DNA of 64,000 nt, from NCBI GenBank assembly GCA_000004985.1, contig GG738845.1. The stretch is one strand, 5' to 3'. The notes under the pieces were generated by a model, which saw only the letters and a list, made by a program, of their open reading frames with translations, was not told the DNA's origin and ran no database searches. Origin of the DNA: Naegleria gruberi (lineage: Eukaryota). Shown here piece after piece: positions 27,001-48,280 of this stretch; the first letter of the stretch is position 1; every line of letters begins with the position of its first letter. The position numbers and the translations under genes were made by a program.

Positions 27001-28103
27001 NNNNNNNNNNNNNNNNNNNNNNNNNNNNNNNNNNNNNNNNNNNNNNNNNNNNNNNNNNNNNNNNNNNNNNNNNNNNNNNNNNNNNNNNNNNNNNNNNNNN
27101 NNNNNNNNNNNNNNNNNNNNNNNNNNNNNNNNNNNNNNNNNNNNNNNNNNNNNNNNNNNNNNNNNNNNNNNNNNNNNNNNNNNNNNNNNNNNNNNNNNNN
27201 NNNNNNNNNNNNNNNNNNNNNNNNNNNNNNNNNNNNNNNNNNNNNNNNNNNNNNNNNNNNNNNNNNNNNNNNNNNNNNNNNNNNNNNNNNNNNNNNNNNN
27301 NNNNNNNNNNNNNNNNNNNNNNNNNNNNNNNNNNNNNNNNNNNNNNNNNNNNNNNNNNNNNNNNNNNNNNNNNNNNNNNNNNNNNNNNNNNNNNNNNNNN
27401 NNNNNNNNNNNNNNNNNNNNNNNNNNNNNNNNNNNNNNNNNNNNNNNNNNNNNNNNNNNNNNNNNNNNNNNNNNNNNNNNNNNNNNNNNNNNNNNNNNNN
27501 NNNNNNNNNNNNNNNNNNNNNNNNNNNNNNNNNNNNNNNNNNNNNNNNNNNNNNNNNNNNNNNNNNNNNNNNNNNNNNNNNNNNNNNNNNNNNNNNNNNN
27601 NNNNNNNNNNNNNNNNNNNNNNNNNNNNNNNNNNNNNNNNNNNNNNNNNNNNNNNNNNNNNNNNNNNNNNNNNNNNNNNNNNNNNNNNNNNNNNNNNNNN
27701 NNNNNNNNNNNNNNNNNNNNNNNNNNNNNNNNNNNNNNNNNNNNNNNNNNNNNNNNNNNNNNNNNNNNNNNNNNNNNNNNNNNNNNNNNNNNNNNNNNNN
27801 NNNNNNNNNNNNNNNNNNNNNNNNNNNNNNNNNNNNNNNNNNNNNNNNNNNNNNNNNNNNNNNNNNNNNNNNNNNNNNNNNNNNNNNNNNNNNNNNNNNN
27901 NNNNNNNNNNNNNNNNNNNNNNNNNNNNNNNNNNNNNNNNNNNNNNNNNNNNNNNNNNNNNNNNNNNNNNNNNNNNNNNNNNNNNNNNNNNNNNNNNNNN
28001 NNNNNNNNNNNNNNNNNNNNNNNNNNNNNNNNNNNNNNNNNNNNNNNNNNNNNNNNNNNNNNNNNNNNNNNNNNNNNNNNNNNNNNNNNNNNNNNNNNNN
28101 NNN
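1..28103. other. Assembly/scaffold gap (continuous run of N); no information
   Basis: Seen directly: every base from 1 to 28103 is n; real sequence begins at 28104. Confidence 0.99.
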
Positions 28104-28104
28104 T

Positions 28105-29022
28105 GAAAAAGAATTACTACAAGCAAAGATTGAGAATGACAATCTTATATCTCAAATCAATCAGAAAAACGAAAAGATTGAAGTTGTGCAATCAGAGGCT
28201 GCCCGCTTAAAGCAAAGTATGGATGACAAAACAAGAGTTTTAGTTCTTTTGATTCAAGAACTTTCAAATTTGACAAGTAATGGAGATTCTAAATTAACCA
28301 ATGTTCATTTGAAGAAGATTGTTTCAAGATACAATACAATTTTAACAAAAGGAATCAAGACAAACAATCAAGCAGAAAAGTTGAGAGATACAATAGAAGA
28401 ATTTGAAAGGCAAAGAGGATTTTTAGAACAAACCATAACAGGAATGAAAAGAACCCTATCGACAAGAGAAGAGCATCTAAAAAACGATCTTTTAAGAAAG
28501 AATAATGAAAATTCCATTTTAGTAGAAGAAATCAATCAATTAAGAAAAGATCAAAAGCAGTACAAACAAAGAATAATATCTTTAGAATACCAGCTCAAGA
28601 ATGCTCTTCATTTCCAACAGCAAGCACAAAGAGAATTGAACTCCTCGGCCTCCAATCCTGCATCGACTATATCTTCTGCGAGATCAAGACGAGTTGGAAG
28701 TGCCACATCTGCAAGTAGATCTTCCCTTAATAGAATACGAACTCCGGATGCATTCTTTGGAAATAGTGACATTACAGGTTTGGACAGACGAAAGGTTGCT
28801 GAATTTGTGGACTCTCTAGAAAAGAATAACAAACGATTCGAACAACAACAGCAGGATATTGACAAACTAAAGAACTATGTTCAAAACTTGTTGGAAGATG
28901 AGGGTTCGAAATCTCCTTCATCACAAAGTGACGATAATAACATTTCGTTTGGCGATTCTCCTCTTCTGGTTTCATCAGAAAAGCAAAAACCAAAATTGGC
29001 TCCGATTAAGATAAATAAATAA
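28105..29022 (+). CDS. 3' part of a coiled-coil protein gene, 5' end lost in the gap (K/E/Q-rich heptad-like sequence, S/R-rich segment, C-terminal acidic tail); stop TAA at 29020-29022
   Basis: The frame is open from the first sequenced base (28105) through ORF 28186..29022. The ORF-track start is a GTG. Composition is typical of coiled coil. No specific family recognised. Confidence 0.5.
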   Translation, partial: EKELLQAKIENDNLISQINQKNEKIEVVQSEAARLKQSMDDKTRVLVLLIQELSNLTSNGDSKLTNVHLKKIVSRYNTILTKGIKTNNQAEKLRDTIEEFERQRGFLEQTITGMKRTLSTREEHLKNDLLRKNNENSILVEEINQLRKDQKQYKQRIISLEYQLKNALHFQQQAQRELNSSASNPASTISSARSRRVGSATSASRSSLNRIRTPDAFFGNSDITGLDRRKVAEFVDSLEKNNKRFEQQQQDIDKLKNYVQNLLEDEGSKSPSSQSDDNNISFGDSPLLVSSEKQKPKLAPIKINK

Positions 29023-29063
29023 TTTATTGTTTTTGTCGCAAGTTATGTACAAAGGTTGTTGAT

Positions 29064-29450
29064 CTAGGGTCTGGTTTGTTTAGCTTGTGTTTGAACGTTA
29101 GGTTGTTGGTGATCGGCGATAGTTGCTAATTTAATTAGATTTTGTTGTAATTTCACTTGGAGTCTTTGTAAATCAATTCCATAATAAATTTTAGTATTGC
29201 CAGTCAAATATTGATAATAGTTAATATTTTGTGATGTAGATCAAACATACGGTTCACATTGATCGAATTGTCCTAGTTTTTGTCTTTCAATAATAGCAAA
29301 AATTAATTGTTGATTTTCGTCTAAATACTAATAAAGTTGTTGTTATTGTTGCGATATGAAACGTACATCCTGTATAGTTTTTGTGGTAATATTGCTGGCC
29401 GATGTATTCATATTGTCATTTGATGATGAAGCACGAGGTTGTGTGTTCAT
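29064..29450 (-). CDS. Small SS18/GIF-family protein (SNH domain), 86 aa, three exons: complement(join(29064..29163,29251..29327,29367..29450)); introns 39 nt (GTACGT..TAG) and 87 nt (GTATGT..AAG)
   Basis: Spliced translation MNTQPRASSSNDNMNTSASNITTKTIQD|YLDENQQLIFAIIERQKLGQFDQCEP|LQVKLQQNLIKLATIADHQQPNVQTQAKQTRP. This matches the SS18 N-terminal homology domain / plant GIF pattern (IQK-LDEN--LI--I---Q--GK--EC-----LQ-NL-YLA-IAD). A-rich leader before the ATG. Exon lengths sum to 261 nt, which is 87 codons. Missed by the ORF track because the exons are short. Confidence 0.6.
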
Positions 29451-29509
29451 TTTTTGTTCCGACAAAAATTATTTTGATTTAAAAAAATGATACACAACAA
29501 AGTAATAAT

Positions 29510-30343
29510 ATGTATTCAAATATGAAAATGGAAAATTATTTTGAACAAGTGTTAAAACAACAACACCTAGTTAACGATGATTTAATTGGCTTTTCTGAGT
29601 ACTTAGACCGATTACTAGAATTAAAAGATTCCTATGAACCGCCATCAATTAGGAAGGATATTGATCAATCACCACTTATGAATGTATTCGGTTTAAAACG
29701 TTCCACGGTGAAGCCTTCTTTTTTATTTTCTCATACTCCAGATATTAAACGACTTTCAGAATTTAAAAACTACTACGTTGAAAAAACATTCAACAGACAA
29801 CCTGCTTTCAAAGCTTCTTTTAGAAACAAGAACAGGGATATTAATAATGATCATTCATTTATTGAAAAGTTGGAATTGTTATTTGGCGAGAATGAAAAGT
29901 ATTTGGATAAATTGACTGATTTGAAAACTCTCTATCACATAAAGCAACTCATTTCAAAATATGAAAGGAAAAATCAATTACAAAGTAATGAGGATTTTAA
30001 TATTTATAATAGGAAGGACAATAGTTTCAATTCTTCTTCATTTTATCATCAACCAAACAAGTCACTCACTGAAGAGAGTTCAACTATTATTCATAGACTG
30101 ATTTTAACAAGTGAACTATTTTCGCCCTACGAATTTTCAAGTGATACTAACCAAAGTGCTGCTTTGAAATCATTTCAGATAGTTTTACATGGTAGCTCTA
30201 AAATATTGAAGAAGAGGCTATCCTCTCTACCAATGTATAATGATATTTATTCATCCCTCATTGAACAATGCGATAAAAGATTCTCAACACTGAGAAGGGA
30301 AATATTTCCTCAAGTAGGTTTTTTATTTTACAAATTGTTGTAA
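29510..30343 (+). CDS. Hypothetical protein, 277 aa as a stand-alone ORF; possibly the 5' exon of the downstream 1258-aa ORF (see findings)
   Basis: ORF with an A/T-rich leader. No recognisable domain. A GTAGGT donor at 30314 and a TAG acceptor at 30362-30364 would join it in frame to 30365..34177. Confidence 0.45.
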   Translation: MYSNMKMENYFEQVLKQQHLVNDDLIGFSEYLDRLLELKDSYEPPSIRKDIDQSPLMNVFGLKRSTVKPSFLFSHTPDIKRLSEFKNYYVEKTFNRQPAFKASFRNKNRDINNDHSFIEKLELLFGENEKYLDKLTDLKTLYHIKQLISKYERKNQLQSNEDFNIYNRKDNSFNSSSFYHQPNKSLTEESSTIIHRLILTSELFSPYEFSSDTNQSAALKSFQIVLHGSSKILKKRLSSLPMYNDIYSSLIEQCDKRFSTLRREIFPQVGFLFYKLL

Positions 30344-30400
30344 AAAACATGAAATCCTGATTAGCCACCTGACAGGTCAATCCCAACCAAGGAAATATCT

Positions 30401-33400
30401 ATGGAACAAATAGAATGGTTGAGTACAAAATATTTACCAAATATTTTCAGACATAGAGTTGATTGGGAAAATAGTCTCACAAAGAGATCAGAGCTGATTT
30501 ACAAACTCTTGTCCTATTTTTCAAAACAACCTGATCAAACAAACAAGGATTGGAGTTCTATAATTTGCTCCCAATACCCTGTTATGGTAAAAAGAAATGG
30601 GCAATATATGTTGATTTTCGGTATTCGTTGGAAGCCATTCACAAATATTAACAATACAATTCAATCTCTCAGGGAAAAGGGTTTATATGGTTTGGAATTT
30701 AATACAGAGCACTTCAACAACTTTCCATACTTTTTCAGGGATGGGAAAGAGTGTATTCCAACAGAAAGGCCAAATGTTACATCATCAACCCTTTTGAGAG
30801 ATTTTAAAAAACAATTGAAAACTCAAATAATAGACAGATCAGGAACAAACAAATACTCTTTTCCAAAACATCCACCATTCAGACATTGGGTATTCGATTT
30901 CTTCTTTAATCAGAGTATGTTAAGTAAGAATGATTTCCTAGCTGTTATGGAAGGAAGGAGATCCCTGCTGGAGATTATACTCAAGTATAGACCCGATCAA
31001 GTGTTGGAAAATCAAATTTATCAAACACTGATAACACAGATCGAGGAATGTTTGAAATCATCGAGAAGAGGTCATTCTTTTAAAAATACTATAGGCCACA
31101 GTGATTTGAAAAGTATACAGATTCCTGATTCCTCAAAATATCTCTCACTATTTCTTCCTTTTTACTTTCATATTGATGATAGTGAAATGTTAAGAGTTGA
31201 TCATTTATTTTCTATTAATTTGGAAGAATATATCAGATATTTTAGAAGAGTTTTAAGCGAATTGAGCGATTCTAATCTCTCCCAAGTGGGAATTTTGGAT
31301 ATATTCGAAATTAGAGAATCAATACAAGAAAACATAATGTACAACCACAAAAATCACATTAATAACTCTCTATTTAATGTTGTGGAAATTTCTAACCCTT
31401 CAAAAGGACATTATATCATTGACATTATTCCTAATCTAATTGAAACCATTCGCTCAAATGTGAAATTTTTAAGGTTGGATAATTTATATTGGAAACTCTA
31501 TTCGAGAGGACTTTACATCCCCGAAAATCCAATACTCCACCGAGATTTTATTCTACAAAGTATTAAAACCTTTCTGCATGATTTGAAAAATCGACAAGAT
31601 AAAACGGCAAGAAAATTCAATACCAAACAAGAGGACACTAATCTATTGCAAGATAACTTGACTCTAATGTCCAGATTTTTGAATTTGAAATGGAAGAGGC
31701 CTTTAGCATACGTTCAAGTTATGACCCCTTCTACAAGATTGGTCATTTCCAAATTGGTGAAAACCTATTTCCACCCCTTACACCAAGTTTTACAACACGA
31801 ACATGGCTCCCCAACTATTCCATCAAAATTGGTCAATACTATCATCCCATTCCAATCTAGAGTTAGCACTTTTGCGATAAAGCTGCTGGAAGTCACTCCT
31901 TCCCAGAACAACAATAATCAGGAAGACACTTTGGTAGATACTGTAAAGACCTTCATTGGAAAGTACAAACACGATGTACACAGATGCGAAAAGCAACTGT
32001 CAAATCGCTTGTTGTTTTTATTCTTGACTGAATGCGCTATGAGAAATATCATTACTACAGATAATGTTCTCCCCAAGTTAGCTCTCATATTTAAGAAACA
32101 TGTGCATGACAACGATACTTGTCTATTACCATGTGTTGATAGTATTGAAAGAGAAATAATTTCTCTGAAGAATTTTCCTAACAACTTGAAGAAGATTGAA
32201 AAATGCAATTTGAACACTTCTCATCTACATCCTTTGGTAATTTCCAATACACTCATGTGGAGAAATGACTTTACAGACATTTCAAATCTCAAGGCACTGA
32301 TATGGAATTCATTGAAAACTACCAACTATTTGATTAACCCTATCAAAGTTATAATAGCAAATTTTGAAAAAGAAAATACCTACATATGGAACAATATGTT
32401 AGAGCAAAGCTTTGATGTATTAGCTATTGAAAATATCAAACACCATGTTAGTAGTTTCTTTCCAATACGATCTAGAGAAGAAGAGGAAAAAGAATGGTCA
32501 GTTCACTACAAGAGATTACAAAAGTTAGGCATAGATTATTTACAATATTACCCATTCAAAGATTTACATGCAAAGGCATTGCTATCCCTTTCAAAAAAGT
32601 CATTAACCACCACTAAACTTGAAGAAAAGGAAGACATTATTGATATGTTTTTTCAACCCATTGATACCCTCAACTCTAATTCTAGACTCGTGTTGGATAA
32701 CTCAATTAATAGTTTGAGCTTGAAAAAATCAACTAGTTCTCTATATAATCGCCAATTTGGATTTCTTTATAATGATCTATCGGATATGAGAAAACCAAAC
32801 CAATTTCTAGATGATTGGGATTTGACACTAACGATTAAATGTATGTCTAGGAGAATACTTCGCAAGTTGAAACAAGCCACACAAAGAAGGGAAATTCTAG
32901 GAAGGATGGAAACCACTTTCAATATTTCTTCAGAGCTTTCTGCTGAGATATTGGAATTTTCTTCATTTATGATAGAATCAATGGATAAGCATTCCAATAA
33001 GGAATCCAAATTGTTGAAAAAATTTAAGAACATTACAAATGGTGGCAGTGACAAACAAAAATTTTCATCCCTACAAGAATTAATTGAACAAGTTTTAGAG
33101 TTTTGTAAAAAATATGAAATTTCCAGAATATCGCATGAAACAATAACAGACTCACCAGAGCAAATATTGTTACCAAGAGAGCAATCTTCTTATTGCCCTG
33201 CCACCACTGTCAGAAATTCTATCAACAATAATGAAATTTACTCTATAGTACCATTTATAGAAAGAACCCTAACTAGATCTAAAACAAAGGAAATAATATC
33301 TAATACTCTAACAAGATACGAAGAGGATGATTTATTGTTCCAAAACCAAATGAAAATGGTAGAATATTCTCCTTTCCTCCATTACTTTGAGAAAAAGATT

Positions 33401-34177
33401 CAAAATATTTTTGAAAATTCTTTTGAAAACTCGTTTTTTGAAAAAATAATTGATTTCTCTTACATTTTGTCTTATGGAAAGGTGAAGATTTTAAACTTCA
33501 ATCATTATGATGAGTCTTTCAACTCTGTTTTCATAACCGAAGCTGAAGCATCATATATGAACGAGCATGACAGACCTTATTTCTATAAATCATCAGACAC
33601 TGCATGGGATATTCTGAATAAGGATTTCCCTTCTCATGCCATTTGTGAGAATTTTGAAAAACTAGAAACATTAGCATCTGAAGGTGTTGACAGCCGCATG
33701 ATATTTGGTGGCTTTTGTGGAGGAGATTGTGAATTGCTGCTTTTTCATCCTGATTGTGAAGAGTTAAAAAATGGGAACACTGAAATGAGCTATCTGAAAG
33801 AGGCACTTACAAATCGAAGAATGGAACATTTTGGAGAGATTACTTGTGGATGGATGAATTTTGATGACCTAGTTGGTCCTGGTATTGAAATGACAAATGC
33901 AAAATGTGGGAATATTACTAGAGAAAATATTTGGATTTCCAATGAATGTTGTACATTCAATTATAATCCAAACAAGACTCTTGAAGAGAACAACAAGGAA
34001 CGACAAGCTAAACAGAAAGCAAATAAGGGTTTAAAGTATGTCAATCACCCCAAAAGATTTAATCAACTTGAATGTGGACATCACCACTTAAGAGAAACAA
34101 TACCTCTCTATGATTTAAAATTCTTGTTTTATTCGGCAACACCCTTCAATTTCAAAGAGTTTTATGATAATAAATAA
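30401..34177 (+). CDS. Large uncharacterised protein (1258 aa from the ATG at 30401; about 1538 aa if fused to the upstream exon); C-terminal Cys/His-rich region; no confident family assignment
   Basis: 3.8 kb uninterrupted ORF ending in TAA (34175-34177). The upstream in-frame sequence is open back to 30365. The ATG at 30401 lacks the A-rich leader seen at other starts. Confidence 0.6.
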   Translation: MEQIEWLSTKYLPNIFRHRVDWENSLTKRSELIYKLLSYFSKQPDQTNKDWSSIICSQYPVMVKRNGQYMLIFGIRWKPFTNINNTIQSLREKGLYGLEFNTEHFNNFPYFFRDGKECIPTERPNVTSSTLLRDFKKQLKTQIIDRSGTNKYSFPKHPPFRHWVFDFFFNQSMLSKNDFLAVMEGRRSLLEIILKYRPDQVLENQIYQTLITQIEECLKSSRRGHSFKNTIGHSDLKSIQIPDSSKYLSLFLPFYFHIDDSEMLRVDHLFSINLEEYIRYFRRVLSELSDSNLSQVGILDIFEIRESIQENIMYNHKNHINNSLFNVVEISNPSKGHYIIDIIPNLIETIRSNVKFLRLDNLYWKLYSRGLYIPENPILHRDFILQSIKTFLHDLKNRQDKTARKFNTKQEDTNLLQDNLTLMSRFLNLKWKRPLAYVQVMTPSTRLVISKLVKTYFHPLHQVLQHEHGSPTIPSKLVNTIIPFQSRVSTFAIKLLEVTPSQNNNNQEDTLVDTVKTFIGKYKHDVHRCEKQLSNRLLFLFLTECAMRNIITTDNVLPKLALIFKKHVHDNDTCLLPCVDSIEREIISLKNFPNNLKKIEKCNLNTSHLHPLVISNTLMWRNDFTDISNLKALIWNSLKTTNYLINPIKVIIANFEKENTYIWNNMLEQSFDVLAIENIKHHVSSFFPIRSREEEEKEWSVHYKRLQKLGIDYLQYYPFKDLHAKALLSLSKKSLTTTKLEEKEDIIDMFFQPIDTLNSNSRLVLDNSINSLSLKKSTSSLYNRQFGFLYNDLSDMRKPNQFLDDWDLTLTIKCMSRRILRKLKQATQRREILGRMETTFNISSELSAEILEFSSFMIESMDKHSNKESKLLKKFKNITNGGSDKQKFSSLQELIEQVLEFCKKYEISRISHETITDSPEQILLPREQSSYCPATTVRNSINNNEIYSIVPFIERTLTRSKTKEIISNTLTRYEEDDLLFQNQMKMVEYSPFLHYFEKKIQNIFENSFENSFFEKIIDFSYILSYGKVKILNFNHYDESFNSVFITEAEASYMNEHDRPYFYKSSDTAWDILNKDFPSHAICENFEKLETLASEGVDSRMIFGGFCGGDCELLLFHPDCEELKNGNTEMSYLKEALTNRRMEHFGEITCGWMNFDDLVGPGIEMTNAKCGNITRENIWISNECCTFNYNPNKTLEENNKERQAKQKANKGLKYVNHPKRFNQLECGHHHLRETIPLYDLKFLFYSATPFNFKEFYDNK

Positions 34178-34179
34178 AT

Positions 34180-36232
34180 TTAGAAAGTGTAATTGTTTGG
34201 ACAATCCAAAGCCCAAGGGAATTTGTCTTGCAAAGTTTTTGAGAAGAGTTTGGCTACTGGTACGTCAGTTCTCTTGCACCATGCAATTGTAATTCTAGGA
34301 TCACAATAGTTTGTTCTTGATGTTGTAAGAGAAACTGTCTTGTTTTCAATTTTCATCTTTTTTTCTTGTTTGAGATCATCAATCTTCTTCTTAATGGCCT
34401 CAATCTTGGAGGAAATAGATTCAGGGGTTTTTGGTAAAAGTGGTTGTGTTGGCTTTTTAGGTGGCTTGCTCTTCTTTGCAGAACCCAAATATGCAGCAAC
34501 AGATTTTCCTGCTTTTTTGGCTTTTTCAGCTAATTCTTTTTCTTGTTGCTTGTGTTCTTCCAACTTTTGTTCATATTCTTTCATTAATTTTTCATTTTCC
34601 TTATCCCATTTTTCTTTTACGTCTTCATATCCTTTCTTTTTAACTTCCTTTAATGCTTGTTGGAGTCTTTCCAAGTAGGTTTCTTGATCTTCAATTTTCT
34701 TTTCCATAGTTTCGACTGAAGTATCAAATGTCTTTGGTGCTGCACGTTGATGGTTACAGAGAATAGCAACTTGTCTGTTGGCAGAGTTGAAAATGCTTAC
34801 TTTCTCAGCAACACTCATGTCACTAGTAATTTCTCTTTCCAACTTTTTCAATTCTCTATCCAATGTAATAGATGCATTATAGGTACGGAAAACCTTGGCA
34901 GATAATTTTTCCATATAGGACTTGAGGTGATCATTGAGTTTGGATGGATTAATCTTGTGGAAGAGCATGTCAGATTTTTTCTTTCCTTCAATAAATCCCT
35001 TTACACATTTGTAAACCTCCTTCTCAACTTCTACAGTATTTTCATATCTGATTGAGTCTTTACCAAGGAAATCAAATTTGATAGATGAAGGAGCAACCAA
35101 GCTCACATGTTCAACTCTTAAACTGCAACAACCAACTGTGTCTGCCTCTTCTTCATCATCTTTTTCATTACCGACTCTCAAAGCAAGCTTATCTATAAAG
35201 TAGATGGCAACTCCCAATTGTCTATCACTTTCTTGCTTCTCCGTCCATTGTTGTTTGTAATCTTCTCTTATCTTTTCTATGCAATCCTTCAAGCTTCTTG
35301 CAGTTTGATATTTCAGATAATCATTCATTGCCTTCATACTTGATCCACTGGCAAATTGTACATACTTGTTCTTATTGTTGATTGCATCTTTAAAAGCAGC
35401 AACCCACAATACTGTATTGTTGGATACAACACCACCCCATTTATGTCCTGTTGGTGGAGGCGGAACATCTTCCAATCTTCCAATATTAATTGTGATATCT
35501 TCAGGTTGAATTCTCTTTTTCAACATACCCATTTTAGGATGGGTACCTCTACCTCTAAATAATCCAGGAGGTTCAATCTTGAACTGTTGAACCTTTTCCT
35601 TCCGTCCATCAACAAGAGCATACTTGTATGCGTCCTCAAACTTTGCTTTTAATTCCTTTTCCGCCTTCTTTTCTTCTGAAGTTCTGTTTAATTTGGTCTC
35701 CTTTTCTGTCAATAAATGTTCCCAAATTTTAGAAAAATCACACTTGGCAAGAGATTTGATTGTGTGATTTTTCCCGAGAAGTTCCTTCCAAGCAGCCCAA
35801 AAATTTTCATTAAATTGTTTCTTCTGTATGTAATCCGATTCCAACATGGAGGCGTACATTGTTGCTACTTCCTCTTGTTCTGGGTCAAGCTTTACAGGTT
35901 TTCCATCATAATAAACAGGAATGCTATGAGGTTGATAATCTGGTGGGAATAATACACCATTATGCTTGAGTGTTTGCCACTTTTGATCAGAGTTTAAAAT
36001 TGACTGGATAGTATCATCCGATTGTGCCCACCATTTGTAAACTCCATCATCTGGTTTAGTGTCCATTTCATCCTTAGATTCTTCCTTCTTTACTTTCTTT
36101 GTGTCTTTTTTAACTATTACTACCTTTTCTTCCTCCTCACTCTCACTATCATCATCCAAAATTCTTTTTCTTTTCTAAAGTTTTGTTGAACAATAAAAAC
36201 GCAACCCGCAAAAAAAAACTTACGTCGACCAT
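34180..36232 (-). CDS. TOP1: DNA topoisomerase I (eukaryotic type IB), 667 aa: complement(join(34180..36174,36224..36232)); 9-nt first exon ATGGTCGAC plus a 49-nt intron (GTAAGT..TTTAG)
   Basis: Core and catalytic regions are conserved (LFRGRGTHPKMG, SLRVEHV, NYCDPRITIAWCKR, C-terminal ..KFPWALD..F then TAA). The ORF-track start is a TTG. In-frame upstream sequence hits TAG unless the upstream micro-exon is spliced in, which gives MVDKRKRILDDDSESEEE.. Confidence 0.88.
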
Positions 36233-41929: not shown

Positions 41930-42970
41930 TTAAAGTTGTTCTGGCCTTGGATGTGATTCCTTACCAAAGTTTGGTGTCACTCTGACAAATTCTGCCTTTC
42001 TTTGCAATTCTTTAATATCTTTGGCACCTCCATAAGTGAGGGCACTTCTCAATGAACCACAGAAATTATCAATAACATCTTGAGCAGAACCTGTACATTT
42101 GGCATGGAATGAAACACCTTCTGGAACAGTACCTTTCTTCAAACCTCCATAGAAATCATCTTGGAAATCCTTACTGGCCTGACCTCTATACTTGACAAGA
42201 GTAATTTCTTGACCGTTTTCTAAAGTTTTCTTTGATTTTGGAGCAGCACTTTCCATTGTCTTTGCAAAAATACTTCCCATCATGACTGTACTAGCACCAG
42301 CAGCTAAAGCAAGAACCATATCTCTTTCAAAAACAATACCGCCATCAGCAATAATTGGAACACGGAGTTTACGAGCTAATTCAGCACAATTCTTGATGGC
42401 AGAAAATTGTGGTAATCCGAAACCTGTCTTGATTCTTGTAGTACAAGCAGCTCCACAACCAACACCAACTTTAACTGCATCAGCACCAGCTGTGACAAGA
42501 TCTTGATAGCCCATTGGTGTACAAACATTACCAGCAATGATTTCCTTGTGTGGTAATTGTTTCTTTAAATTTCTAATAAATGTACACATAGCATCACTGT
42601 GACCATGAGCAATATCAATAACTACACCTTTAGCTCCCAATTCCAACAATTTTACAGTTGATTCCATATCATTGAGACCACAAGAAACAAAACAATTATT
42701 TTCATATTTTTTCACCCATTCAGATTGTTTTTCAAATGAAGTGAAACGATGGAATAATGGAATACCTCCATTAGCAATCAAAACATCAGCCAATTCATCA
42801 CCAATAACTGTATCCATATTAGCAGCAAGGAGTGGCATTCCAATCTTTGTATTCTTTGTCAACCAAGTATCTAATGAAGGGTGCAAACGTGAAGGAACGT
42901 TATTATATTGAGGAACAAGTGTAACGTCATCAAATGTCAAACACACTTCTTGGTGAATATTGCTCATCAT
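41930..42970 (-). CDS. GMPR: GMP reductase (IMPDH/GMPR family without CBS domains), 346 aa
   Basis: [38 protein letters not shown]. Length and C-terminus match GMPR. TAA stop. A-rich leader. Confidence 0.85.
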
Positions 42971-43374: not shown

Positions 43375-46300
43375 ATGATCAAGAAATTGGGCGTAAAAGC
43401 TCAAAAATTTTCTCTCATACTTCACCCTGCATTTAAACACGCAACTGATCAACATAAAACAAAACTTGTTGAAGAATCGGAAGGTCATGTTGTTCATCAT
43501 GTTATTAGTGAAGATTGTCTTGATGGAGAGTCTAAAGTTAATAGTGAAGAATTAATTGTTAGTGATTTGATTGATGAAGATATTGATGAAGATGATAAAA
43601 AAGAGATTGATGAAAATTTACTTCAAAAAGCATTATACTATGCTCTATTAACTTTACATTTACCGATTCATATGGTTCCTGAAAGAATTCAAGATGTTCC
43701 CCTCACACTCTCACAATTACAAGGTGAAGTTTTAAAATTATTTGAACCCAAGTTAACTCTTGAAGAGTTGCAAAAAACTTGGAATGAAATATATATTCAG
43801 AAATCAGATAATGGCTCTATTGATTTAATTGTAGATTTTCTATTGTTGAGAAAGTATATTTTTGAAAACGAACATCAATTACCATATACAACCTCTGATT
43901 TTGTTAGTGTGGAGAAGTATCAGTTTTGGAGACATAACAAGATTAAGGAAATTGACCTCATGTTGGATAGTATTAAAACTGCTAGAAAGAAGGAATTCAA
44001 TTGCAAGTTGGAATTTGAATTTGATAATGTTATCCTAAACAATTCTGAGTCTCTTGTTAAGAAAACTGAGTGCGATTTGATGTATCATTTGGATACAACT
44101 GATCCTGAGAGTTCCATTAAAATTAACAATGATACCAAAACTAAAACTGTATATGAATCAAAACCTGTAGAAACCAAGAAGAAGGATGCTGCTTTTAAAC
44201 CAATCTTTAAAGAACTTGTTAAATTGTAAGTGTTACCTCTAATGATGTGTTCTAACTTCTTCAAATATGTAGATCTCTAGCAAATAGAGATCAAGAGGTA
44301 AAATTTTCTATCATCTTGTCAAAATATGCAGGTTTGAAAAAGAAGGAAATTGGTCACGTTATTATTCCAGTTACCAGTTTAATTGAAAAACTTTTCCCAA
44401 AAACAAATTGGGGAAACATTGATCAACCGATTCGAGCTGATTTTCCAATTGTTTTTAATAATTCAACTATTGGTGATATTCAACTCAAAATTACAAGAGG
44501 AAATTATCAATACTTCCCAGCAAATCAAAATAATTGGACTACATATGTTTCCAAGAGGCTTGACTTTATCAAGAATAATTTAAATACATTTGATATTCCA
44601 GATGTTTACAAGATCAAAAAAGTTCTATTAAGAAGAGCATTTAATTCGCCAAAGACAGACCTTAACTTAGTGACTTATGTTCAAAAATGGATTCTTGGAG
44701 AGATTGACCTCTTATTTGGTATGTCTACCCATAATGCAGAAATTAGTTTGTTAGATGTACTTTCAAGAAATATTCGTTTTTTAATTTCATTTGCTGATCA
44801 ATTTTCAAAAAGTTATCAAACTGCTACAAAAATAATTAGTGATAATATTAAACAAACCAACAAGATCAACCAAATTATGGACAAGACTGAAAAGAAAGTT
44901 GTTGATCTCTTAATGCATTTCAAGGAGAGATTCCCAAGAAACAAACCAGATGGTGCTTTAGAAAATGTTGTTAAACTATATGACACCATTATTTCTGTAC
45001 ACAAAAAACATTCATTTGAAGAATTTTTAGATATTCTTAAAGACCTTTTGAAAAAGTCACTCGAAAATGATTATTTGCTTATTAAGAAGCAACAATTAGA
45101 GGTTTTCAAAACAGAAGAGTTGAATGCCAAGGTGTTAATTGGAATGATTCCAGGGATTGTATACAAATTGGATAGGTAAGTTGACATGTCATTTAAAATT
45201 TCAAAATATTTTCAAAAACCTTAATTGACCAAACAACTTAACATCACTTTCAAAGACTCTATGATTATTCTGATACACTCCCACAGGATGTTAAATATGA
45301 AAGCATGAACATGATCTATTATGAATTGTTCAAGAAGGATTTCCAACAAGTTGCTCAATCAGGAGGGTTCTCTGGTTATCAGATGTTGCATTTTTGCACT
45401 AAGATTAAAGATTTAGCTGAAGTGATTGGAAACTCCAACGATTTGAGTCAAAAAAAATCCGAATTGATTGACATCGCTGAAGTTTCTAAAGGCTATGAAG
45501 AAAAATTCATTGAAGAATTAGCGGCTAAACTCGGTGATTGCGCAGATCAATCTATTAAGATTGACAATTGGGTACCAGTTAATCAAGACGTGAAACACTC
45601 AACAAGTGTTGTTGATTTTTACACTGCAGCTAACGAGATTTGGAACTATGTTTCTGAATTGGAGTTTTTCAATGAACATTTATTGCAAATGTTCACAGAA
45701 ATGTTGGCAAAGGTCACTCTCGATTATGCAAATAAGGTTAAAAATATTGCAGTACAAATTATTACTAGAAATACAAAAGAGAAATCAAGTACATCCCCAA
45801 CAACTGAAAAGACCAAAAAATCCAAAACAATCAACCTCTTTAGTAGAAATGAAGTTAAAAACGCGGAGCAAGAGAGTGATTTAATTTATTCTGAGATTGA
45901 ATTGACCTCAGATTTTTTAATAATGCTTAATAATATTAGCGTTTCGAAGCAAGAAATGGAAGAAATTATCGATAGTATTATTGAAAAACAAAAGGACTTG
46001 AAAGATAGTGAAGAAGTCACTAGACAAGTAGAAAGAAACGAGGAAGAAGATTTGGACTTGGAAAATGAAGAAGATTTGAAAAAGACCTCAGATATGATTG
46101 GTGAGCATCAAATGAGTGCTCTTGAAAAATCCAGAAAAAATATTGACCTTATTATTGAATCATTGATTGCTATCATCTCCTCCAGTTTCAGAGTTCCAAT
46201 TAGAAGTACACTACAAAATATTTTTAACAAAACTAAAACCTTGGTTGAAAAAAGTTCACCATCGAACAGACCCCTCTCCAAAGATACTACTCTCAAAATT

Positions 46301-48280
46301 GTGCAATCAGAAATTGATTCAATTTTGAGTAGTGAATTACTTGAGTCTATTCTTACACCTGCCTTTACAATTCTATCCGAAAGTTGCTATGATCAATTAT
46401 TTAAATTAATCTTGGAAAATATTTTGGATATTACAAACTCAGAAATGATTAATTCATTTATTATTCCAACTGATAATTATGATATTGAATCTGATAAGGA
46501 CAAATTCCTCACTGTTGAACAATTATTTGTACTTGAAAGCGTTCACACAACCTTTGGAATTTATCTTTGTGGTAATGATGATGATCCTGATACTGGATTG
46601 AATGAACAAGTATTTGAGTCCAAATCACGTCTCCTACTCAGATTAATTTCCCTCTATCAATGCACAACACCCAAGTTGATTAACATTTACCAAAAGTACA
46701 CCAAGTATCCTAATTTGAACTTTTCAAACATTTTGAAAAAGCATCACATATTACTTTTACTCAAATCTAAGGGTGATAAAGAAGCTCTATCATTCTACAA
46801 AATTCATCAAAAAGAGGCAGAACATCAACGTATTATTCAAGTCTTCAATTTGAAACCAGTTGATGGAGCAGGAGATGAAGATGAAAGCAATGACAGGTAT
46901 GAAGAGTTGTTGGTGACTGTGAGTGGTATTTATGAATTAAGTCCGTATGATGTTCATGTTACTGAACTCAGACTTTTACTAGAATCTAAATGTTCTAGAA
47001 AGACTAAAGAATTTTTATTGAGAGATGTCATTAATGCCAAATTGAGTAAACATTTACTCTCCACAAAGGGTGTTCAATTTTCAATCAAGGGTGATGAAAA
47101 GAGAGTTTACATTCTAAATTTTACTGATTCAGAATTGAGAACCAAATTCCTAAATGTATTTTACCAACAATTGAAGAATATTGGTAATGAACAACCTCAG
47201 CTTCAAGAATTGAAATCCCCAACAACAAGTGGAAGTTCTGTTAAAATCCTTGACTCTAATTTGTTTGATCAAGCTGCAGATGCCTTAAAACTCAAGTTTA
47301 AAATCAAAAACTCATCATGTAAACTTTTAAAAAGAATTATTGCTCAAGCTGCCTACAAGGTCGATAATACCAAAGTTTTTGCGGATGGTGAAGTATTATT
47401 ATTCAATTATGGTCTTTGTTTCCATTGTGGTTCAGATGGTGTTAAAGGAACTTTCTCTCTAAAACTCAACTTTTCAATTGTAAAACAAATTGAAGGAAAG
47501 AAGAGAAAGGACAATTCCATGAGAATCAAAATTGATCTGCAAGGAGGCTATTCTCTGTCTTTTTATAATGTTGAATTTTTTGAGAATTGTCTCTCTGATA
47601 TTATCAATGCATTTGAACAATGGTCCAAGGATTCAACAATTACACCTCTACCAAAATCAGATGATAAGAATTATTTCATTTCAAAATTCAAATTGAAATG
47701 TATTGGAGAGAGTGATGAATGCTTAGATAGAAAGTTGAGCTGTGGATCAGCACTTACAGAAAATGGAACATTGTTTATTGGAAACTATCATTGTTGTTAT
47801 GAATCCAATTCTCTCCTTCCAAATAACGGAGACATACAAAAGGAAGAGCAAATCTTAATCCCTGTTGCATTTATCAAGGATATTGAGAAGTATGTTCATT
47901 CAAAATTATTGGCTCTCCGTTTATTGAGTGGCCATATTGTTTGTTTCATGTTCCATGATGAAAAGAGTTTAGAAATCGCCTTCCAAAGAATCACTGTCAA
48001 GGTACAATGTATCACTAAGCCAAAAATATCCATATTTGGATCTTCAAACAGTGAAAATAATCTTTATATTTCAAATATTTTAAAAAATGAAAAGATAGAT
48101 TTGGATTCTTGCGATCAGAGAATATTGAATAGTGCTATATTGACAAAACAAGCTCAAGAAGCACCAATCCAAACTTTAGGTAATTTGGGAAGCGGTGTCA
48201 AACAAGCAAGTCAAAGTGGTGGAGTTTTCCATTATTTTACCAATATTGGAAAGAATATTTTCGGAAATAAGAAGAAATAA
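43375..48280 (+). CDS. Large protein of about 1590 aa with two C-terminal PH-GRAM-like modules (..EVLLFNYGLCFHCGS.. and ..GTLFIGNYHCCYESN..): join(43375..44225,44273..45175,45256..48280); introns of 47 nt (GTAAGT..GTAG) and about 80 nt (GTAAGT..AAAG; alternative acceptor at 45303)
   Basis: The three ORFs 43375..44229, 44316..45179 and 45305..48280 each end on a GTAAGT that overlaps the stop codon. Their frames reopen immediately after a YAG with no intervening stops. GRAM-like G-L--NYRL-F-S motifs. Family not identified. Confidence 0.55.

Follow-up and report, generated by a model that had tools for sequence, protein, structure and literature searches.

Here we report a compact three-exon gene for an SNH-domain-only protein of the SS18/GIF family, located on the minus strand at positions 29064-29450 of a 64,000-nt stretch of Naegleria gruberi DNA (assembly GCA_000004985.1, contig GG738845.1), the whole of which is called the window below. 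Positions 1-28103 of the window consist entirely of N, representing either a scaffold gap or padding, and the real DNA (28104-64000; 35.9 kb; 33% GC) begins inside a coiled-coil ORF on the plus strand that is open at the edge and ends at 29022. Long eukaryotic ORFs crowd the real DNA, among them those for topoisomerase I (TopoI), GMP reductase, DEAD/DEAH helicases, Noc2 and DNAAF5, and a 346-aa ORF (41933-42970) is identical to XP_002683466.1 of Naegleria gruberi NEG-M, a protein encoded on a scaffold of 1,555,553 bp. No tRNAs were found in the window. A search of positions 28800-29700 against Rfam yielded one sub-threshold match, to hveRNA (mt-5S-like) on the plus strand (29209-29323; 28.3 bits vs a gathering score of 90; E 0.024), which lies over intron 2 and exon 2 of the SNH gene on the opposite strand and most likely reflects chance in AT-rich DNA.

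The features of the SNH gene and its flanks are listed in Table 1. The spliced coding sequence encodes a product of 86 aa, MNTQPRASSSNDNMNTSASNITTKTIQDYLDENQQLIFAIIERQKLGQFDQCEPLQVKLQQNLIKLATIADHQQPNVQTQAKQTRP, and its start codon is the first in-frame ATG after the upstream stop. The introns have a lower G + C content (0.25) than the exons (0.34). The exon coordinates and lengths (84, 77 and 100 nt), the junctions 29367/29327 and 29251/29163, and the 86-aa product given in a preliminary description of the locus were all reproduced exactly. The same description had stated that no six-frame ORF reveals the gene, which is borne out by the ORF listing: exons 1 and 3 are overlapped only by short ORFs of 40 and 47 aa, respectively, exon 2 is contained in no listed ORF, and there is no long ORF over the locus.

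Table 1. Features of the SNH-domain gene and its immediate flanks, in window coordinates.
Feature	Position	Strand	Remarks
Spliced coding sequence, 261 nt including stop	29450-29367, 29327-29251, 29163-29064	-	three exons
Exon 1, CDS 84 nt	29367..29450	-	ATG 29450-29448; disordered S/N/T-rich N-terminus and first SNH residues; ends ...TKTIQD
Intron 1, 39 nt, phase 0	29328..29366	-	GTACGT...TTAG; between IQD and YLDEN
Exon 2, 77 nt	29251..29327	-	YLDENQQLIFAIIERQKLGQFDQCE plus 2 nt of the next codon; predicted helix 1 and turn of the SNH hairpin
Intron 2, 87 nt, phase 2	29164..29250	-	GTATGT...AAAG; interrupts the codon that follows Cys52-Glu53
Exon 3, 100 nt including TAG 29066-29064	29064..29163	-	(P)LQVKLQQNLIKLATIADHQQPNVQTQAKQTRP and stop; predicted helix 2 of the SNH hairpin; 15-residue tail
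SNH (SSXT) domain coding span, residues 20-76	29097..29393	-	interrupted by both introns; coordinates by arithmetic from the exon positions
Head-to-head spacer, 59 bp	29451..29509	.	SNH start codon to ATG of the divergent plus-strand ORF 29510-30343; presumably a shared promoter region
AATAAA hexamer	29023..29028	-	read from the sequence; 36-41 nt past the SNH stop codon, abuts the convergent ORF stop 29020-29022; putative poly(A) signal

The gene is tightly packed between its neighbors. Its stop codon is separated by just 41 nt from that of the convergent plus-strand ORF 28186-29022, and the two 3' UTRs, unless extremely short, must overlap. On the other side, the divergent ORF 29510-30343 and the following ORF 30401-34177 (both on the plus strand) are in the same frame with three stops between them, and a GTAGGT donor at 30314 used with an AG acceptor at 30364 or 30391 would take out 51 or 78 nt in frame. 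The joined protein (29510-34177) gave one continuous tblastn HSP to an N. lovaniensis gene annotated as a single 1605-aa product, and its counterpart in N. fowleri is annotated as two genes (359 and 1222 aa); in N. gruberi, the two ORFs probably form a single gene with a short intron; no Pfam domain is present. Elsewhere in the window, a 284-aa ORF (43375-44226, plus strand) was clustered at 90% with an N. gruberi model of 1869 aa, XP_002683140.1 (NAEGRDRAFT_45074), which suggests that the reference annotation joins it with the next ORFs (44316-45179 and 45305-48280) as one gene.

The assignment to the SNH family was supported by the Pfam database. The preliminary description had recognized an SNH consensus and proposed a comparison with the SSXT family; the spliced 86-aa protein indeed matched SSXT (PF05030) with 61.6 bits (cut-off 26.2; E 5.2e-17), with residues 20-76 aligned to profile positions 3-59 of 62. 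Exon 2 alone matched positions 13-38 (26.3 bits) and the ORF of exon 3 alone matched positions 35-59 (23.3 bits), so the pieces are collinear. A control that made no assumption of splicing used a hidden Markov model (HMM) built from homologues without the window sequence, which was run against the 1363 stop-to-stop segments of all six frames of the 35.9 kb of real DNA. The only significant segments were those of exon 2 (E 4.5e-13) and exon 3 (E 3.2e-9), which are adjacent and lie on the same strand in different frames; all other segments had E > 0.1.

The exon boundaries were evaluated by enumerating all ATG-started models with zero to two GT-AG introns in 29600..28950 (188 models) and scoring them with an HMM from 23 homologues that excluded the window sequence. 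The three-exon model ranked first (96.2 bits). An alternative in-frame ATG at 29411 scored no better and is also contradicted by the N-termini of the orthologues; alternative splice sites were rejected on the same two grounds. At the level of sequence comparison, these results and the orthologues with the same gene structure (below) confirm the locus as a genuine and conserved gene of three exons whose product is an SNH-domain-only protein, and both introns are predicted to be spliced in vivo.

The 86-aa protein starts with about 22 disordered residues, continues with the SNH domain, which is predicted to form a two-helix hairpin (residues ~23-45 and 49-70), and ends in a tail of 15 residues after the SNH domain, HQQPNVQTQAKQTRP, which contains no Gly. 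No QG or QPGY region was found in the 86 residues. The protein aligned to the SS18 part of PDB entry 7VRB, a fusion of the BRG1 QLQ domain and the SS18 SNH domain (E 1.3e-8), in which the SNH hairpin and two QLQ helices form a four-helix bundle (PMC9117659). The SS18 mutations I32E, L54E and A65E abolish binding to BRG1 (PMC9117659); these residues correspond to I37, L59 and A70 of the N. gruberi protein and are invariant in a cross-kingdom alignment of ten sequences that included Heterolobosea, Ostreococcus, a plant GIF, SS18L2 and SS18L1. In the AF2 model for the orthologue from N. fowleri, which shares 82% core identity, two helices (33-55 and 59-80) have pLDDT > 90 and are flanked by disordered tails. 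A Foldseek search with this model returned 7vrb_D as the top PDB match, with a probability of 1.0 but a weak E-value (0.058), as is to be expected of a helical hairpin, an unspecific fold; below it came only generic helical hairpins, and the search contributes little beyond the sequence alignment.

By profile searches, an annotated orthologue was identified in each of four further heterolobosean species: N. fowleri (FDP41_004121, 93 aa), N. lovaniensis (C9374_000578 / XP_044552406.1, 83 aa), Willaertia magna (ABK040_000096, 75 aa) and Acrasis kona (AKO1_007913, 108 aa). A single-sequence homology search with its lossy word index had returned three matches and missed the orthologues of N. lovaniensis and N. 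fowleri, both of which were recovered by the profile searches. Identity to the N. gruberi protein in the SNH core was 82-86% for N. fowleri, N. lovaniensis and Willaertia, and 59% for Acrasis. Like the N. gruberi protein, the orthologues are SNH-only or nearly so; they differ in the lengths of their N-terminal tails, and that of Acrasis kona has a longer Q/P-rich tail. An N-terminal MN(P/T)Q..R motif is common to the products of N. gruberi, N. lovaniensis, N. fowleri and Willaertia, and the C-terminus ...AK(Q/P)TRP, directly followed by the stop, is common to the three Naegleria species.

The exon structures of the orthologues were solved from the fetched loci using the annotated proteins. In all four, IQx is directly followed by a phase-0 intron, the next exon is exactly 77 nt long, and the codon after C-E is split by a phase-2 intron; this backs the three-exon SNH gene proposed in the preliminary description. 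The introns range in length from 36 to 127 nt and align poorly. Synteny is also retained: the order in N. lovaniensis and N. fowleri is TopoI, a large gene with no Pfam domain and SSXT, and the window contains its mirror image, with SSXT (minus strand), the ORFs 29510-30343 and 30401-34177 (plus strand) and TopoI (34180-36159, minus strand). The divergent arrangement at the start of SSXT is present in N. lovaniensis and N. fowleri as well. Codon changes in exon 2 were mostly synonymous, with synonymous to non-synonymous ratios of 9:3 (N. lovaniensis), 7:3 (N. fowleri) and 5:2 (Willaertia), and purifying selection on the gene is shown to the extent that such codon comparisons reveal it. Taken together, the intact frame, the canonical splice sites, the synonymous excess, the synteny and the shared structure argue for a functional spliced gene.

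Two metagenomic SNH homologues (P0003 and P0006; JGI) have 11-12 extra residues that start with 'YV' exactly at the site of intron 2. The insert looks as if a prokaryotic gene caller had read in frame through a GTATGT intron, and the position of this intron would thus be kept also in uncultured relatives. A representative protein of 4799 aa contains 19 separate stretches that match the SNH profile; it may be either a compositional (Q-rich) artefact or a repeated-domain protein.

The gene is probably unannotated in the N. gruberi reference, since the exact 86-aa product is absent from a collection of 15 billion proteins (including assemblies of public sequencing runs) in which RefSeq proteins encoded on this scaffold of N. 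gruberi are present. No SNH protein of N. gruberi was among the results of the profile search, which did recover the orthologues of all four other Heterolobosea. A search of the literature yielded nothing on SS18 in Naegleria, and nothing informative on a Snf2 or QLQ protein of this genus. The earlier expectation that such a gene would be missed in annotation is therefore plausible for N. gruberi, but the gene is not hidden in its relatives, four of whose annotations carry it. The proteins of N. lovaniensis, Acrasis kona and N. fowleri are named 'SS18 N-terminal domain-containing protein' in UniRef, and the Willaertia entry is a 'hypothetical protein'.

Outside Heterolobosea, the SNH core was more similar to the GIFs of the green lineage and a protein of Ostreococcus (55-59% identity, 57-62 bits) than to vertebrate SS18 and SS18L2 (47-52%, 36-40 bits). 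Plant GIFs of the GIF1/AN3 type, whose SNH domains fall within the former range, also share the intron positions and phases of their first three exons with the N. gruberi gene. However, they comprise about 200 aa, with a C-terminal QG transactivation domain, and have GRF partners (PMC6507847), neither of which is present or expected in the case of Naegleria; in an alignment with a 218-aa GIF, the entire C-terminal region of the GIF was missing from the N. gruberi protein. The characterization of the product as GIF-like rather than SS18-like in the preliminary description thus holds for the sequence of the SNH core but not for the architecture, which lacks the QG domain. Human SS18 and SS18L1 (CREST) have a homologous SNH domain with conserved BRG1-contact residues, and SS18 has in addition a QPGY domain (about 300 aa) through which it self-associates and phase-separates (PMC9117659) and which the N. 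gruberi protein lacks.

The closest architectural relatives are two other SNH-only proteins. Vertebrate SS18L2 (77 aa) has the same size and the same introns, with a core that is about 50% identical; it coexists with the full-length paralogues SS18 and SS18L1, and its likeness to the N. gruberi protein is one of architecture and family ancestry. The 80-aa micro-protein of Ostreococcus lucimarinus (XP_001418617.1; 59% core identity) is likewise encoded in a compact genome but, unlike that of N. gruberi, by an intronless gene. In terms of the likely function, the best analogy is provided by yeast Snf11 (169 aa; PDB 7VRC) and Schizosaccharomyces pombe Snf30, both of them small subunits of SWI/SNF that bind QLQ and have no disordered activation domain (PMC9117659, PMC13580576); their sequences are much more diverged, and the Snf11-type families of fungi in Pfam gave no match to the N. 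gruberi protein at E <= 1.

The positions of the SNH introns are known to be conserved within the green lineage (Kim 2019, PMC6507847). In our comparison, a 77-nt exon of a land-plant GIF (P0032, 218 aa) was flanked by introns of phase 0, before YLDEN, and phase 2, after C-x, and SS18L2 of a bird (Calidris pugnax; P0143, 77 aa) had three coding exons with the intron positions and phases of N. gruberi. Exon 2 was exactly 77 nt long in all seven genes considered (N. gruberi, the four other Heterolobosea, the plant GIF and the bird SS18L2). The Ostreococcus version is the intronless one, with a complete gene of 243 nt for a member of its cluster. The same intron positions in Discoba, Archaeplastida and Opisthokonta most likely mean that both introns predate the split of these groups, and both are thus probably ancient.

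We propose that the locus is a functional, apparently unannotated gene of N. gruberi and that its product belongs to the SS18/GIF/SMARCL family and most likely acts as the QLQ-binding SMARCL subunit of a BAF-type SWI/SNF complex, a reading that we hold with good confidence. A minus-strand transcript would lose its two short GT-AG introns and yield the 86-aa protein, whose SNH hairpin would pack on the two QLQ helices at the N-terminus of a Snf2/Brm-type ATPase to form a four-helix bundle. In this way, the protein would serve as SMARCL, the small subunit that binds QLQ, in a SWI/SNF remodeller of the BAF type. As it has no QG or QPGY low-complexity tail, it would be expected to have a structural or identity role, like yeast Snf11 or vertebrate SS18L2, and not to be a phase-separating or transactivating subunit like SS18 or GIF.

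We infer QLQ binding and membership in SWI/SNF from homology to proteins whose interactions have been studied. Snf11, SS18 and Snf30 are QLQ-binding SMARCL subunits (PMC9117659; PMC13580576), and SMARCL has been defined as the conserved subunit of BAF-type complexes that binds QLQ, in competition with BRD7/Rsc58 for this site (PMC13580576). Yeast Snf11 binds the QLQ domain of Snf2 in the manner of the SS18 SNH domain on BRG1 (PMC9117659), GIFs bind QLQ domains and associate with SWI/SNF (PMC6507847, PMC9170682), SS18 of Toxoplasma co-purifies with SWI3 (PMC13377188), and the SNH-only SS18L2 associates with BAF members in proximity labelling (PMC9381743). The related kinetoplastid T. brucei is without orthologues of the conserved core SWI/SNF subunits examined (PMC9170682), so phylogeny alone cannot imply the presence of the complex in Discoba.

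A protein that is the interaction domain alone could also be a microprotein decoy, which would compete for the ATPase's QLQ domain with a longer SMARCL paralogue or with a SMARCI of the BRD7/Rsc58 type and would tune or inhibit assembly instead of being a constitutive subunit. SMARCL and SMARCI proteins are documented to compete for the QLQ site (PMC13580576), and vertebrates hold an SNH-only SS18L2 beside full-length SS18 and SS18L1. However, each heterolobosean species yielded one SNH protein, and no longer paralogue was found in N. fowleri, N. lovaniensis, Willaertia or Acrasis by a search with a lossy word index; moreover, yeast Snf11 is a bona fide subunit that has no disordered region (PMC9117659). 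We regard a decoy function as unlikely.

Still less probable is a role as a transcriptional coactivator of the GIF type, which would bind the QLQ domain of a sequence-specific, GRF-like DNA-binding factor and recruit the remodeller to that factor. The SNH core is nearer to that of the green-lineage GIFs and Ostreococcus than to that of vertebrate SS18, and a plant GIF has the identical exon structure; but this structure is found in animal SS18L2 as well and is thus ancestral and not specific to GIFs, the 15 residues past the SNH domain include no glycine and form no QG activation domain, and GRFs (QLQ and WRC) are reported from streptophytes only (PMC6507847).

The three exons could also be the 5' part of a longer SS18-like gene with Q-rich C-terminal exons further downstream, if the TAG at 29066-29064 were skipped by alternative splicing, as Q/P-rich tails are longer in Acrasis kona and the metagenomic relatives (proteins of 108-116 aa in total). 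This is very improbable: the convergent ORF ends 41 nt past the stop and is followed by the gap at 28103, the orthologues of N. fowleri, N. lovaniensis and Willaertia stop at the homologous position (after TRP in both Naegleria species), and the alternatives among the 188 enumerated models scored lower. A chance resemblance or a decaying pseudogene is effectively refuted by the E-values of the spliced protein against Pfam and of the unspliced pieces in the no-splicing control, the intact frame with canonical splice sites, the excess of synonymous codon changes, and the structure that is held by syntenic orthologues across genera.

The SMARCL subunit proposed here is an ordinary member of a family whose members and mechanism are already well characterized, and the result is incremental and unsurprising. 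The gene is probably one that the reference annotation of this model free-living excavate lacks, and its recovery illustrates that multi-exon micro-genes this small can be found by matching profiles to stop-to-stop segments. With it, a clear member of the SS18/GIF family (SMARCL) is placed in Discoba. A review has described the SS18/GIF family as absent from protists other than green algae (PMC6507847), and the presence of an SNH gene in Naegleria speaks against this statement; the only discoban in the main survey of SWI/SNF evolution was T. brucei (PMC9170682).

A discoban SMARCL is in support of the proposed origin of the subunit in the LECA (PMC9170682), and, as far as gene structures and taxonomic distribution can indicate, the shared introns and the presence in Discoba support a LECA age for both the subunit and its two introns. 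More tentatively, the SMARCL of the LECA may itself have been an SNH-only micro-protein encoded by three exons with these two introns, to which the QG tail of GIF and the QPGY tail of animal SS18 would have been added later and independently. The Naegleria gene would then be a little-changed survivor and its product the sole QLQ-binding subunit of a minimal discoban SWI/SNF complex, a scenario that we consider possible but rather doubtful.
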